Of a DNA stretch of 64,000 nucleotides, positions 7,380 to 64,000 are shown piece by piece. The DNA is from Isurus oxyrinchus (taxonomy: Eukaryota), in contig JANJGN010000049.1 in the NCBI GenBank assembly GCA_026770705.1, positions 4,216,001 to 4,280,000 of the forward strand. Direction: 5' to 3'. Made by a program: the position numbers and the translations under genes. Each line of letters begins with the position of its first letter. Position 1 is the stretch's first letter. The notes under the pieces are model-generated. The model did no database searches and was not told the DNA's origin. It saw only the letters and a list, made by a program, of their open reading frames with translations.

Positions 7380-8386
<1,007 letters not shown>

Positions 8387-9261
8387 GGTGCAGGTGTCCC
8401 GGTGTCTCTCCAAGTTTGGTGATCAGTTGAAGCCTCGTCCACACAAAGAATACGTGTACAGTTTCTCCCCACTGTGAATGGTGTGATGTTATTTCAGGCT
8501 GTGTAACTGGTTAAAGCTCTTTCCACAGTCAGTTCACTGGAACACGCTCACTCGGGTGTGTGTGTCTCAGTACTTTTCCAGTTACACTGATGTTTGAAAT
8601 ATTTTCCCACAGACAGAACAGACAAACATTTCTCCCTCCACATTCAAAGGTGATGATATTCAGGTCCTGATGAATCGAGTGACTCTGTCAGATCTTGATG
8701 TGATGTTTGGTTTGAGTTTCCTGCCTGAAAATCCTCCCCTTCTAATTCTCTGTAAAAGGAGTTTACAAGTGTCATCACTGTAAGAACAGGATAGAAATTC
8801 AGAACAGACAATTCTAGTTTCTACGGAACATTTTTTCCTCTCTTGTTCCCTGAAAGCTGCAAATCCCCATCCCACACACTCTCCCTCCTCCCTGTGCTGA
8901 CATCCAAACAGAGTTTTGGACAATTCCTTCTGTATCTTTTTAACAAATTTCTACAACTAGAGGTGACAATATGTCTGATCATTCACTTCAGTCATTACTC
9001 GTGACAAAACATTAATCTGAAACCCTCCGACTGACCAGGCAGAATAGCAGATGTTAACCTTGTGTCCAAAACTTACTGTGTGGAGACTTAATGAGTGATC
9101 GTGTAGGTGGTTTCTCCAAACGTCCCAAGGTTTCCTTCCTTCTCTCCCTCTCTGAGTCAGACCTGGGATCAGTCTCATGGCCCATTCTGGTTCCTGTTTC
9201 TCTTCCTGATGATTAATTAACTCCAATTAAACACTGAGAAGACTGAAGACACAGTCTTTGG

Positions 9262-55944: not shown

Positions 55945-55986
55945 TTTATTAGTAATTTCAGAGAATATTTTACAGGAAAGTTTATT
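55945..55986 (-). terminator. Candidate polyadenylation signals for membrane IgM mRNA
   Basis: AATAAA on the minus strand at 55981-55986 and 55945-55950, about 400 nt after the TM2 stop. Confidence 0.6.
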
Positions 55987-56383: not shown

Positions 56384-56392
56384 TCACTTGAT
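56384..56392 (-). CDS. IGHM: IgM heavy chain TM2 exon coding part (Ile-Lys-stop)
   Basis: Acceptor ctccctgttttacAG then ATC AAG TGA, 140 nt downstream of the TM1 donor. Confidence 0.85.
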   Translation of the reverse strand: MK

Positions 56393-56532: not shown

Positions 56533-56660
56533 CTTCACCAGAGTGACAGCAGTGCTGTAGAAAATGCTCAGGAAGAACAGGACAATGAATGTGGAAGCGG
56601 TTGTCCAGATGTTCCCGTTATCGTCCTCATTGTCTTCAATCCAGATGCGGTCTGTGGAAT
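56533..56660 (-). CDS. IGHM: IgM heavy chain TM1 exon
   Basis: ccctgtAG acceptor and GTgaga donor; (D)STDRIWIEDNEDDNGNIWTTASTFIVLFFLSIFYSTAVTLVK carries the antigen-receptor transmembrane (CART) motif. Confidence 0.95.
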
Positions 56661-57299: not shown

Positions 57300-58224
57300 T
57301 GCTCTGCCTTTAACTGTGTTTGTGTGCCCTGTTGTATGAGCGTTGATGTGTGTGTTCATGTGGCATGAGTGTTGATATGCTTATTTATGTGTTGCCCGCC
57401 TTTGTGTGTATGTTTGTTCATTTGTAAATGAATGTGTATCAGTGTGTTAATGTGCCTGTCTGCGTTGATGTTTATGTTCACTTATTAATGTCTGTGTTAA
57501 AGAGTTTATTTACGTCCATGCCTGTTAATATATCTGATATTGTGCCTTTTTACGTTCTATGTTTGATATGTTAATGATTGTGCCCCCTTGAGCGTGTGAG
57601 TATGTTGAGGCGTGCCATTATGTGTTCTTGGATGTTTCTAGCTTTGTCTTAATGTATGTTTATGTGTCTATGTTTACTAAAGCGTGTGTTTATATATGTT
57701 TGTTTTAATGTGAGTGCGTGAATGTATTCATAGCTATTTCTTGCTCTATGTTTGTGAAAATGTTACTGTCTGTTCATCTATTTGTCTGTGTGCCCGTTTG
57801 TCAATTTTTTATGTGTGTAGAAATGCCTATGCATGTGCACTATTGTGTATGATAGTGTGTCGTTAAATCTATATTTTTGTGCTCGTTGAAGCACAGGAAT
57901 GAACATGTTCATGTACAAACTTACAGGACCTGTCTGAGTCTGTTTATGGGGCTGTGTATATCTGTAATTGTGTGTGTTGAGTGCACCCATGCATGCGTGT
58001 TTGTGTGTTTGGTCACAATCGTTTGCATGTGTGTGACTGTGTGTGCATGTGTGTGAGAGGGTATCTGTATTTTTAGATGCCTGCTTGTGTGTGTGTGTGT
58101 CTGTCTGTGTGTCTGTTTGTCGAGAGTGAGTGTATATTTCTGAGTGTGAGGTTGCATCTGTGCATATGTGTTGTGTGTTCCTGTGAGTTGCATGTCTGCA
58201 TATTTTCTATGTATATGTGTACTC

Positions 58225-58286
<62 letters not shown>

Positions 58287-59064
58287 TTGTGAGTGTGGGT
58301 TTGTTTGTGTGTGTATGCCTGTGCATGTTTATCATTGTGTGGGTCTGTGTTTGCATGTGCATTCTTGTGTGCTTGTGTGTGTGGCTATGTGTATATGCGT
58401 CTGTGTGCTGGTTTGTGTGTATATGTATGCTTGTGCTTGTGTATGTATGTGTATGTATGTGTGCATGTATGCCTGTCTATGTATGCATGCATGCTTGCAC
58501 CTGTTTGTGTATCTGTGCCTCTTTTCCCGTGCCTATGTATGAACCTGTGTGTTTGTTTCTGTGTACCTATGCATGTTTGCGTGTGTGTGTGTGTGTGTGT
58601 GATCTTCTGCCTGTGTGTGTGTTTATGTGTGTATTTTATCAGTGTGTGGGTGTGCGTTTACATGTGTGTTTGTGTGTTTTGATCGTGTGACTCAATTTGT
58701 TTTTGTGTGTATGCGTCCATGTGTTTGTGTGTGTGTGTGTGTTTGTGTGTATACATGCGTGCGGGTTTGTGTATATGCCTGTGTGATTGTGTGTGTGTTT
58801 GCGTATGTGTGTGTGTGATCTTGTGTCTGGATGTGTGTGAGTGTGTGCTTCTCTTTATGATGTATATGTGCTTCTGTGTGTCTCTGTTTGCCTGTCTGCG
58901 TGTGTGCCCGAATGTGTGTACCTCTGTTTTGCCTGCATGTGAGCTCGTGCATGCATGTGTGTCTGTGTGTCTGTCAGTGCATGTGTGTGCGCATGTCTGC
59001 TTCAATGTCTGTGGGTTTGTATCTATCCAAATGTGTGCGTGTTTGTGTATGTGTGTGTGCGTGA

Positions 59065-59110
<46 letters not shown>

Positions 59111-60642
59111 GAAAGTGTGTGTGTGTGTGTGTATGTCGATGTGTGTGGTTGTTTACATAGGCTTTTGTGTGTGTGTGTGATGCCTCTGTGTCTGGGTGTG
59201 TGCTTTTGTCTGTCTGTGTCAATGTCAGTCTGTGTTTATGTGTTCGGGCAAGTGTGCATGATCCAGTGGGTGTGTGTGTGTGTCTATCTGCCTGCATGTG
59301 TGCACGAATGTGTGTATGTCGGTGTATGCCTGTATGTGTGCTCTTTTATGCATGTGTGTGTGTATCTGTGAGTGTGTGTGTGTGTGCATGTCTGTGTTTG
59401 TGTGTGTCTATCAGAGTGTGTTTGTGAGTGTGTGTGTGTGTGTGAATGCGGGTGTGTGCGTCGATGTGTGTGCTTGTTTATGTATGTTTGTATGTGTGTG
59501 TGTGTGTGTGTATGTGTGTGTGTCTGTGTATGTGCATGCATGCGTGTGTGCCTCTGTGTCTGTCTGTGTAACTTTGTCTTTCTGTGTCAATGCCAGTCTG
59601 TGTTTATCTGTTCGGGCATATGTGTATGATCCAGTGGATGTGTGTGTGTGTGTGTGTGTGCGTCTGTCTGCCTGCATTGTGCCCGAATGTGTGTATATCT
59701 GTGTATAACTGTATGCGTGTTCATATATGCATGTGTTTGTGTGTCTGTAAGTGCGTCTGTGTGTGCACATCTGTGTCAAAGCCTGTGTGTGTTTGTGTGT
59801 GCGTGTGGATGTTAGTGTGTGTGTGGGGACGTGTGTGCTTGTTTACGTATGTGTGTGTGAGTTTGTATGTGCATCTGTGCCTGTCCGTGTGCTTTTCTCT
59901 CACTGTGTTGATGTCAGCCTTTGTTTATGTGTTCCGGCATGATCCAATGTTGTGTGTGTGTGTGTTTGTGTGTGGATGTGTTTGCTTGTTTATGTATGTG
60001 TGTGTGTGTCTGTCTGTCTGCGTGTTTTTGTCTGCATGTGTGTATGTCTTCTGTGTTGATTTGTTCGAGCGTGTGAGCTTGATCCAGTGCGCGCGGGAGT
60101 GTGTGTGTTTGTGTGTGTGCGTATGTGTGTGTGTGTGTGCGTGTGTTCATGTGGATGTGTCTGCTTGTTCATGTTTGTGTGTGTGTGCCTGCCTTTGTGT
60201 ACGTGTGTGTATGCAATTTGGTTTCAGTGCATGTGTGTGTCTCTATGTGTGTTTGTCTGTGAGAGAGGGAGAGAGACATCTGGTTTCAGACTGGGTGTGT
60301 GCCTTTGTTGTGTGTGTGTGAGTCTGTTTGTGATCTTTTGCCAGGGTGTGTGTGAGAGTGTCTTTGTCTGTGTGTGTGTGTGTATGTGCGTGTGTTTGGG
60401 TGTGTGTATGTGTGTATGTTTTACGTACTATTGTGTGTGCATTTTCCTATCACTGGTTGTGTGTGCATGTGTTTGTGTCTCTGTGTCGCTGTGTGTATTT
60501 GTCTGTGAGGGAGAGAAAGAAAGATCTGGTGTCAGATTGCGTGTGTGCCTTTGTTATGTGTGTGTGCGTGTGTGTAGGTGATCTTGTGCCAGGTTGTGTG
60601 TGAGCCTGTCTTTGTCTGTATGTGTATAAGTGTGTATGTATG

Positions 60643-60691
<49 letters not shown>

Positions 60692-60929
60692 CTGTGTGTG
60701 TGTGTGTGTGATCTTGTGCCAGGGTGTGTGTGTGTCTGTCTTTGCCTGTGTGTATGTGTGCATGTGTGTGTTTATGTGTGTATTGTTATGTACTTGTGCG
60801 CTTGCATTGTTTCTGTCAATGTGTGTGTGAATATGTGTGTGTGTTTGTGTGTGTTTCTGTGTGTGCATGTGAGTCCGTGTATGTGTGTGTGAGTCATCTT
60901 GTGCCAGGGCATGTATGAGTGTATCTTTT

Positions 60930-60999
<70 letters not shown>

Positions 61000-61045
61000 T
61001 GTGTGTGTGTGTGTTTATGAGCTTATGTCAGTGTGTGTGTGTATT
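57300..61045. repeat. About 3.7-kb degenerate (GT/CA)n tract with perfect runs, inside the CH4-TM1 intron
   Basis: Continuous TG-rich sequence; long perfect runs at about 58227-58283 and 60932-60995. Confidence 0.97.
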
Positions 61046-61993
61046 ATGTTATTAATGTAGTATGTATCACTGAACATCAATAACGTGGCCTGACAGTGAA
61101 GGTATGATCGATGGAGAACACAATTCGCCATTCTGTGTATGAATGTGTTTTCTTTGGGGTTCAATGTGACATCAAGCGATAGAATGCAACAATTAAACAG
61201 AGGTTCCCCAGAAACATTAGAAACAGAACCGGAAAAACAGGAAGGATGGAAACAGCAGTTCAGATTTGGATTATGAAAAATCATCGGCAACTTGTGATTT
61301 ACAAGAACAACAGATTGGAAATCATTTCAAAACATCACGTTGCACTATGTTTGCCATGATTGAAGATTACAATCTGAGCGCAGGAAGCTAGAAGCCACCT
61401 TGTATCTGAACCCATATCATAGACAGCTGTTCACTTCTAAACCCTCTGGTACTGGGAGGTTAGTGAGTTAATGTTCCCCTCTCCACTCTCTCTCGTTGGC
61501 TAAACAATTTCCTCTCCAGTTGTCTGTGTTGGGGATGTGCAGGTGCATTGCGTTAACTAATGCCCTCCCCCATTTCTATGTTGGCAAAGTCGAGATAGAT
61601 TTCACCTTCCCGTGTGACCCTCACTTCAGTTCCCAGTGGGTGCGATGTGGCAACATCCGGCTGGTAGAAGTTTGAATGGATGGACGAAAAGTGAAGCAGG
61701 AACAACGGGATCTGAATGCTGCTGCTCTGTGTGCTTGTGCTAAATGGGAAATGGTCAGAATTCACCTCAGCGAGGGGCAAGTTGGTGAAGTAACTTTACG
61801 GAATTCTGTGATGAATGAGCTTTATTCTGTCTCTAAGCCAGGGGGTATCTGAGCTGGGGGCACGGATTGCACAAGACTTGGGTCTGAGACCTGTAAATTC
61901 CCGACATCAACTAAACAGGCCTAACATTAGCAAAACTGGAAAACATAATTAATTAAGTGGCTGTGTATTTAATTCACAATTGGAGGAATATCC

Positions 61994-61999
61994 TTTATT
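61994..61999 (-). terminator. Polyadenylation signal for secreted IgM mRNA
   Basis: AATAAA 36 nt after the secretory-tail stop codon. Confidence 0.85.
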
Positions 62000-62035: not shown

Positions 62036-62427
62036 TCATTGACATGAATTAACGGTATCCATCAGTGCAAGGGAAATGTTCACAAAACTCGGTTTACCGC
62101 TGGATTTATCAACCGTTCTGTTGATGATCTTCAATGGAATCGCTTCATGTCCCACCACACAGGAGTAAGAAGCGCCGCTGGCCCACTCCTCCCCTGCAAT
62201 GGATAACAGGCTGTACATGAAGAAGGAGTTATTGCCGTTCTCCGCCATCACCTCAGTGTTCTTGTAGTTCCCCGGATTCACCGGCTTGTCATTGACGGTC
62301 CACTTGATGAAGATCTCTCCGGGGGAGAAACCTCTCACTAAGCAGCTGAGGGAGATGAATCTCTGAGCGCAGACATCTTCAGCCGAGGGCAGGAGGACAG
62401 AGACGGACGGTTCCCACGGATATTTAG
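62036..62427 (-). CDS. IGHM: IgM heavy chain CH4 exon plus secretory tailpiece
   Basis: tttgcAG acceptor; C1-set domain [10 protein letters not shown]...KW...YSCVVGHEA; internal donor G|GTAAAC at 62098/62097; tail [20 protein letters not shown] with NIS sequon and penultimate Cys. Confidence 0.97.
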
Positions 62428-62897: not shown

Positions 62898-63203
62898 CTT
62901 CTTCCTTGTGGATGGAATTTCTTAAAGGAGTCGGCAGATCCTGATGGCTCACCACGCAGTAGAACTCAGCCCCACTCAGCCAGGCTTGTGTTGAGATGTT
63001 CAGGTTACTGATCACGCTGTTAGGATCCTCTCCCGGCTGGACAGCAATCTCTGATTTCAAAGGCTTCTGTTCTTGTGTCCAGGACACGAGCACACCATAA
63101 GGGGCGTTACTCACGATACAGGTTAAGGTCACTGTCGCCACCAGTAAGACCTGTGCTATTGGCGGCGGCTGTAGAGTAATTACGGTGTCGTTGCAGTTGG
63201 AAA
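62898..63203 (-). CDS. IGHM: IgM heavy chain CH3 exon (acceptor reads AC, not AG)
   Basis: 306-nt open phase 1-1 exon [14 protein letters not shown]...[18 protein letters not shown]...[22 protein letters not shown]; donor GTgagt. Confidence 0.92.
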
Positions 63204-64000
63204 GTGTGAAGCAGAAATGAATGTCAACCAAAACATCATCTTCAGAATGAGAAACCCAGTATTCAGCTTTCACTCTCACGACGGGAATATTTATTTGACT
63301 TGCCCCTGCCGTGTTAACGCCTTCATTGTTTGAAGGTCAATGACTTGCAATAATTCCGGAAGACTCCATAACATTCCCTGGGTATTTCCAGCCAGCACCA
63401 CTGGGAATGACTAAACCAAATGCCGGTCCAACAATGTGAATAAATTCAGGTACAATCGTCTTACAGACAGAATATCACTCGTCCCGAAATCAAGGAATCA
63501 GAGAATGATAGAATGCTAACAGCACAGGAGGAGACCATTCAGCTCTCTATGTCTCTCTGTAAGAATAATGTGCGCCTTAACCCCATTTATCCTCCCCGTT
63601 CTGTCATGTGCGATAACATTTTCAAAAAAAATGTTAATCTCTTTTTTTGAAATGTCAATTGATTCCCAGCCTCAGAAATTCTTGGGGAAAATGAAAGTGA
63701 TAATATTTCCCAGTGTGAGGAAAATGTTGCCAAAATCGCCTTCCTCAGTATTTTCCTATCTCTAATTTGGAGGACTAAGCATTTTCTCCCCACTTTATTA
63801 ATTAACAGAAACACTGCAATTCGATCACTCATTAGACTTTTGTACTCAAAGGAATGCAGCCGAGACTATGCAAACTGCTATCAGCGCTGCTCAATCTGAA
63901 AACAGCAGCAGAAATAAAGTGCAGATCTTTGTCAGAATTGAAGTCGTGGGCAATTACCAGTAAAGGCCTGCAGTTACCGATTCTACCCACAATCAATTTC

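Follow-up and report, generated by a model that had tools for sequence, protein, structure and literature searches.

A probably decaying germline IgM minicluster with an AC splice acceptor at CH3 in Isurus oxyrinchus

Elasmobranch IgM heavy chains, as described for horn shark and nurse shark, are encoded in miniclusters of the form VH-D1-D2-JH-Cmu1-4-TM (PMC2435157, PMC5192425), and the cluster analysed here shares their layout, RSS arrangement, four constant exons, secretory tail and transmembrane exons. It differs from them in carrying an AC acceptor, a CAG heptamer, relaxed constraint, and a leader and V of IgW type. Non-functional copies are likewise part of the multi-cluster family of nurse shark, for which IgM pseudogenes are described as Groups 6-8 and G2C (PMC2435157), and three pseudogenes are reported beside 9-12 functional genes (PMC5192425); compared by description, the present copy is distinguished by keeping all of its reading frames open. 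A further nurse shark gene, IgM1gj, is reported to lack CH2 and to have a germline-joined VDJ (PMC5192425, PMC4279169). A CH3-skipped product of our copy would likewise have three constant domains, but this copy has four constant exons and split V, D, D and J segments, and IgM1gj, which the first-pass annotation had brought in as an analogue, is a poor one because it lacks CH2, not CH3.

The CH3 acceptor and the rest of the cluster

The window, by which we mean the whole stretch of 64,000 nucleotides that was analysed, contains an Ig C1 exon on the minus strand within 63330-62890, whose match is shark IgM CH3 (84% identity to horn shark Ig heavy chain C region P0002), the identity that the first-pass annotation had given it. 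That annotation had also read the acceptor of this open exon as AC, and so it stands in the assembly sequence, where the minus strand at the boundary runs ...tcatttctgcttcacAC and then tttccaactgc, so that 63205 is A and 63204 is C. RNA-type contigs of two organisms, A and B, whose runs lack this copy, join CH2 to exactly 63203 (joint 1704-5314 of L038, with a loose end at 63203), which indicates that the boundary at 63203 is the homologous acceptor. It is the sole non-canonical splice site, all others in the cluster being canonical. The parts of the cluster inside the window are as follows.

63206..64000, minus strand: 3' part of the CH2-CH3 intron (3608 nt)
63204..63205, minus strand: CH3 splice acceptor dinucleotide, AC replacing AG
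62898..63203, minus strand: IgM CH3 exon, open, with GT donor
62036..62427, minus strand: CH4 exon and secretory tail, with a GT donor inside the exon, at 62097, for the membrane form and, by paralogue alignment, five private amino-acid changes including a new Cys
56533..56660, minus strand: TM1 exon, open, AG/GT
56384..56392, minus strand: TM2 exon, two codons and the stop

With AATAAA signals at 61999 and 61826 and at 55986 and 55950, the sequence bears out the earlier statement that CH4, tail, TM1, TM2 and the polyadenylation signals are intact. The secretory tail and TM1 are separated by ~3 kb of degenerate CA-repeat (window ~58000-61050). Elsewhere the window holds a C2H2 zinc-finger array with frame breaks (7382-8422, minus strand) and, at 825-2551, a tandem repeat of 75 bp in which long frames are open.

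The cluster continues past the window end on contig C49 (loci L031 and L032), where we continued the window numbering.

67123-66812, minus strand: CH2
68373-68074, minus strand: CH1
74120-74073, minus strand: J
74523-74513, minus strand: D2
74903-74897, minus strand: broken 3' heptamer of D1, CAGGGTG
74917-74904, minus strand: D1
75642-75341, minus strand: V
75813-75768, minus strand: leader

Leader, V, D1, D2 and J lie within 1.7 kb as split segments, each with its RSS, so that one V, two D and one J fall within the ~2 kb typical of a minicluster, together with four Cmu exons, tail, TM1 and TM2. Leader, V, J, CH1-4, TM1 and TM2 contain no stop and no frameshift. The 3' heptamer of D1, in contrast to this general integrity, reads CAGGGTG (CAC to CAG, position 3), a form unique to this copy among 44 aligned copies, in which CACGGTG was present in 37/44 and CACAGTG in one, while D1 and D2 were joined in four and one was gapped. 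The joined D1-D2 (V-DD-J) of four clusters was found at C38:9.52 Mb, C38:11.19 Mb, C20:76.72 Mb and C126:0.34 Mb. A heptamer change of this kind is reported essentially to abolish recombination (PMC7337519), and in nurse shark V-to-D1 is described as the commoner first step, with every order seen (PMC2435157), suggesting that alleles of this copy would likely stall after that step, although V-to-D2 joining would still be possible. In the family at large, V RSS heptamers read CACAGCG in 35/39, and J heptamers read CACAGTG, not CACTGTG, in 23/46.

Paralogues and the substitution pattern

The first-pass annotation had proposed comparing the acceptor across the IgM clusters of the assembly. A genome pattern search for this acceptor type found 49 copies, and 10-30 kb around each was analysed; 46 of the 49 have AG and three have AC. 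One more copy, the 50th, was found later; its tract is shortened and its acceptor is AG. The constant regions were clean in 28/49 copies, and the other 21 were damaged by a stop codon, a frameshift, the absence of exons or a splice lesion, among the last a CH1 acceptor reading AA and a CH3 donor reading AT; some of the frameshifts that involve one base could stem from errors in the assembly. A clade of eight copies, all on small contigs (C544, C132, C336, C342, C502, C506, C523 and C358), has a longer J-CH1 intron and V matches in two pieces, with stops in 7/8 of its constant regions, and likely duplicated after damage.

All three AC acceptors are on contig C49, at loci 1.7-2.0 Mb apart. The other two copies (C49:663.8 kb, L035; C49:2614.9 kb, L036) are near-identical to each other, have a TAA in CH3, and carry a CH4 Trp-to-Arg change at a site invariant in the remaining 47/47 copies. 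They are not sisters of the window copy in a tree of 48 copies (one, without CH1 and CH2, being omitted), which needs two changes to AC. The tree thus speaks against common descent of the three AC copies, and 300-nt windows gave no long shared tract. The AC at non-sister copies may thus reflect either recurrence or short gene conversion.

To describe selection, which was judged from differences among present-day copies, we called a change private when its allele was absent from all other copies. Private coding changes in CH1-4 of this copy were 16 non-silent to 2 silent, and in V 3 to 1. The neutral expectation is 77% non-silent, from which 16:2 does not differ (p=0.40), whereas the pooled ratio in intact copies was 11:14, which does differ from 16:2 (Fisher p=0.004, or 0.008 when a 3-base tandem change is counted once), the counts being small. 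This pool comprised 23 of the 28 clean copies; five were omitted for V or leader damage, for having no V found, or as an identical duplicate. Pairwise pN/pS was 0.49-0.67 in five pairs with this copy, compared with 0.11-0.28 in six intact pairs and 0.32-0.47 in six pairs with other damaged copies. In 1307 nt of exon, the intact close relative C20_76110 has 1 private change and this copy 19, at intron private rates of 0.60% and 0.72% and with 3 and 5 indel runs, respectively. The density of private changes in this copy is higher in exons (1.45%) than in introns (p=0.012, one of 13 tests), as it is in the stop-bearing copy C342_357, and this exonic excess is not predicted by pure neutrality.

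Non-silent private changes occur in all four constant exons, with most in CH2 and CH4. One of them replaces Ile by Asn at the second residue before the CH2 Cys, a position that is Val, Ile or Met in six of six shark IgM proteins, and two others, Arg to Gly and Ala to Gly, fall in CH4 at positions conserved in the shark IgM proteins that cover them; burial of the changed residues is inferred from Ig-fold patterns. The 3-base tandem substitution is at the end of CH2 (L031:2824-2826, minus strand), private to this germline copy. Tandem changes are described as typical of shark somatic hypermutation (PMC4279169), and the resemblance is probably a coincidence. An apparent bias of private changes toward C>G was rejected, with 4/61 private changes of that type.

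Taken with the old upstream AG described below, the two signal lesions and the relaxed constraint over the constant exons lead us to regard this germline IgM minicluster, with its AC acceptor and CAG heptamer, as very probably a decaying pseudogene in a birth-and-death array. The first-pass annotation had listed a one-base pseudogene among its options; the pseudogene option is supported, and it is "one-base" that fails, since the D1 RSS is damaged as well and constraint is relaxed in every constant exon. Neither canonical splice sites throughout, nor CAC at every heptamer, nor purifying selection on the C exons, as looked for in a functional cluster, was found here. Nor was there a stop or frameshift in the coding exons, as looked for in a pseudogene, and the case for what would be an inactivated gene rests on signals and on the pattern of substitution. 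Against it stand the open exons, the other splice sites, all canonical, the in-frame AG with its pyrimidine-rich run, the exonic excess of private changes, the small counts, and the two separate origins of AC that the tree requires.

Under the pseudogene reading, selection would have been lost after duplication and neutral point changes would then have gathered. V-to-D1 joining would still be feasible and D1-to-D2 joining would fail, leaving V-to-D2 as the sole remaining route. Every transcript would be without the normal CH2-CH3 junction, with CH3 skipping or use of an AG at +35 (frameshift and early stop) as likely outcomes and the AG at -36 used less often, and any in-frame products would carry several substitutions that are likely to be destabilising.

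Splicing routes and rival explanations

The sites that bear on how such a transcript could be spliced are listed here, with offsets counted from the CH3 boundary.

63240..63241, minus strand: AG in the intron at -36, in frame without a stop; long-standing intron sequence, found in 37/49 copies, and a possible cryptic acceptor
63204..63239, minus strand: the 36 nt that use of this AG would add, 12 residues with one Cys
63223..63227, minus strand: branch-point-like TTGAC (putative), A at -21, between the upstream AG and the dead acceptor
63169..63170, minus strand: first downstream AG (CTACAG), +35; shifts the frame, with a stop 20 codons after CH2

The first-pass annotation had presented the AG at -36 as a rescue site. 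Its arithmetic is right, in that use of the AG would keep the frame and bring in 12 residues with no stop, but the D-D junction that it gave is not, since CH2 here ends in A and the first residue becomes Asn. The notion of rescue is not borne out either: 34 of the 46 copies with a normal acceptor carry the same AG, which therefore predates the lesion, and a compensatory gain was rejected on the same ground, the AG being unchanged old intron sequence. Within the 60 nt examined, 11 copies have no upstream AG, and in one it lies at -33. For CH2 (-36) and CH4 (-33) of this gene, too, the closest AG upstream is in frame and open, making three of its seven acceptors, and the in-frame AG at -36 is no excess over chance. 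Its pyrimidine-rich run (12/17, compared with 13/17 at the true site) suggests that use as a cryptic site can occur. The trinucleotide is AAG, and it lies upstream of TTGAC, which we take, from the general consensus, to be the candidate branch point. An open reading frame and a nearby in-frame AG are thus no proof of rescue.

As the first-pass annotation had said, the internal ctacAG throws the message out of frame, and translation confirms its statement that skipping of CH3 preserves the frame. It had overlooked further in-frame exonic AGs at +48 and +72. Retention of the intron gives a stop after 27 codons, and the frame through the AC itself is fully open. Exon skipping is a frequent result of acceptor loss. 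Among human disease cryptic 3' sites that follow YAG mutation, Table 1 of PMC1636351 gives 83 unique exonic and 28 unique intronic sites, and the medians given there are +12 nt for exonic and -44 nt for intronic sites.

This copy is not contained in any of 24 listed public runs, the best share of words being 0.40, and the contigs described here come from runs without it. In four RNA-type runs, at 88% likeness, CH1-CH2, CH2-CH3 and CH3-CH4 joints are present; among 15 of the 36 joint rows from these runs there was no joint at 63239 and none from CH2 to CH4. RNA-type runs X15 and X17, likewise without this copy, had no contig cover over 63206-63340 (2/2 runs). Listed DNA contigs over 63204 stop within ~30 letters of the site.

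It is very unlikely, in our view, that the copy is expressed through the AG at -36, with 12 residues including a Cys inserted between CH2 and CH3 of the mu chain. The insert is in frame and free of stops, all exons are open and the pyrimidine tract is decent; the exonic excess of non-silent changes could mean divergence to a new role, and V-to-D2 joining might bypass the D1 lesion. The AG is, however, sequence that most normal copies already have, its trinucleotide is AAG and precedes the likely branch point, human cryptic sites after YAG loss are mostly exonic by the counts cited, the same route in the other two AC copies runs into a stop, and the D1 RSS lesion remains. In addition, 63206-63240 is uncovered in 2/2 RNA-type runs, neither of which has this copy, and the insert is hydrophobic, which is unlike the hinges of antibodies, these being Pro/Cys-rich. 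A selected isoform that skips CH3, yielding a three-constant-domain mu chain, seems to us highly unlikely. Skipping keeps the frame and commonly follows the loss of an acceptor, the only stop of the other two AC copies sits inside CH3, and AC occurs on two branches of the tree. CH3 has nonetheless decayed no faster than the exons that would be retained (changed codons in 3/101 for CH3, compared with 11/331 for CH1, CH2 and CH4; p=1.0), leaving the CH3-less option of the first-pass annotation unsupported by the pattern of change; the non-silent changes fall mostly in CH2 and CH4, the other two AC copies have the CH4 Trp-to-Arg change, and the known three-domain chain, IgM1gj, lacks a different domain and is germline-joined.

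An assembly error at 63204 in an otherwise normal gene would require one base only, and the DNA-type runs X1 and X2, which do not contain this copy, gave no contig with its private base at any of 63140, 63198 and 63300. We hold such an error to be very improbable, since the identical base occurs at three distant loci, this copy and the intact C20_76110 are alike in intron private rate and indel runs, and the independent RSS lesion and relaxed constraint agree with a real lesion. Direct use of the AC to give a normal chain is extremely improbable. The frame is open through it, and the minor spliceosome takes AC ends. Introns of the U12 type with an AC end have an RTATCCT donor and a TCCTTAAC-like branch site, whereas the donor here is GTAAGA and the final 50 nt contain no U12 branch motif, and U12 splicing was rejected. 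If transcripts did use the AG at -36 or skip CH3, a hinge or the loss of a domain would have arisen from one splice mutation, which would bear on how antibody classes gain hinges. We continue to favour the decaying pseudogene.

IgW-type leader and V segments in the family

The V segment of this cluster does not group with conventional IgM VH. Of the longer database matches to V, 13 in number, every shark chain with a class name is IgW or carries an IgW-type constant region, with identities of 62% to Triakis IgW and 56% to sandbar shark IgW; a catshark protein V is 81% identical. Within the genome, V is 64-65% identical to the C88 V segments, of which two precede IgW C exons, compared with 47-51% to IgM V on C26/C151. 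In a 26-row V tree the conventional IgM VH separate at 100/100 and the V of this family falls on the IgW side. The leader (MGFALCLCFFLACFT) resembles the C88 leader (MGFAPYLCVLLLCLT) and is unlike that of conventional IgM. A PDB search with V returned only mammalian-type VH among its best 60 matches.

L032:1341-1813, minus strand: IgW-type leader and V, with paralogues on C38, C42, C49, C20, C100 and other contigs

On the constant side, all C exons and ~1 kb spanning D1-D2-J can be aligned to those of conventional IgM clusters, of which a separate array is present on C26/C151 (67-82% identity over the D-D-J and C regions), while IgW is on C88. An IgW-type leader and V joined to conventional-IgM-like D-D-J-C places the join between V and D1. 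Judged by these alignments, the gene family is one of IgW-type L-V on IgM D-D-J-C in the germline, with the join between the V RSS and D1. V aligned in 39/49 clusters, and in another seven, fragments of a broken V lie farther upstream.

Somatic inter-cluster switching in nurse shark is reported to pair IgW V with IgM C too (PMC4279169), but the pairing here is in the germline and is repeated in dozens of clusters. IgH classes are described as linked, with V exchanged over evolutionary time (PMC12227049), and in horn shark a monotypic second VH family has been described (PMC2191167). The V of our family may be that second family, for which pairing with IgM C is only a lead. A text search, mostly over titles and abstract starts, gave no literature match for an IgW-like variable region with shark IgM. 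RNA-type contigs from other organisms align to the C exons of the family, for the most part at 90-99%, show normal splicing, and have CH2-CH3 junction letters like those of the family, a hint that the family may be expressed in the organisms from which the RNA came, although some contigs may be conventional IgM. We tentatively raise the possibility that this is an undescribed, expressed IgM subclass of ~50 germline clusters, a second large array next to the conventional one, in which an IgW-type L-V was grafted on IgM D-D-J-C, long enough ago for catshark to have a near relative of its V.

Other unusual arrangements were seen among the IgH loci. A second IgW-clade V with an IgM-type J and a V-J span of ~1.1 kb is present at C26:38727852 (L146) and at C140:224725 (L150), where ~19 kb contained no C exon of either IgM or IgW at an identity of at least 45%. 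At C26:24432881 (L154), a conventional IgM cluster has its J motif directly after V, apparently as a germline-joined VDJ.

The cluster with the AC acceptor is a single one of many damaged copies within a birth-and-death antibody array, and the IgW-type V, a side finding of this analysis, may outweigh the splice lesion in importance. If the proposed subclass is real, an exchange of V between antibody classes would have been fixed in the germline and amplified, which would alter how the IgM repertoires of sharks are counted and PCR-amplified.
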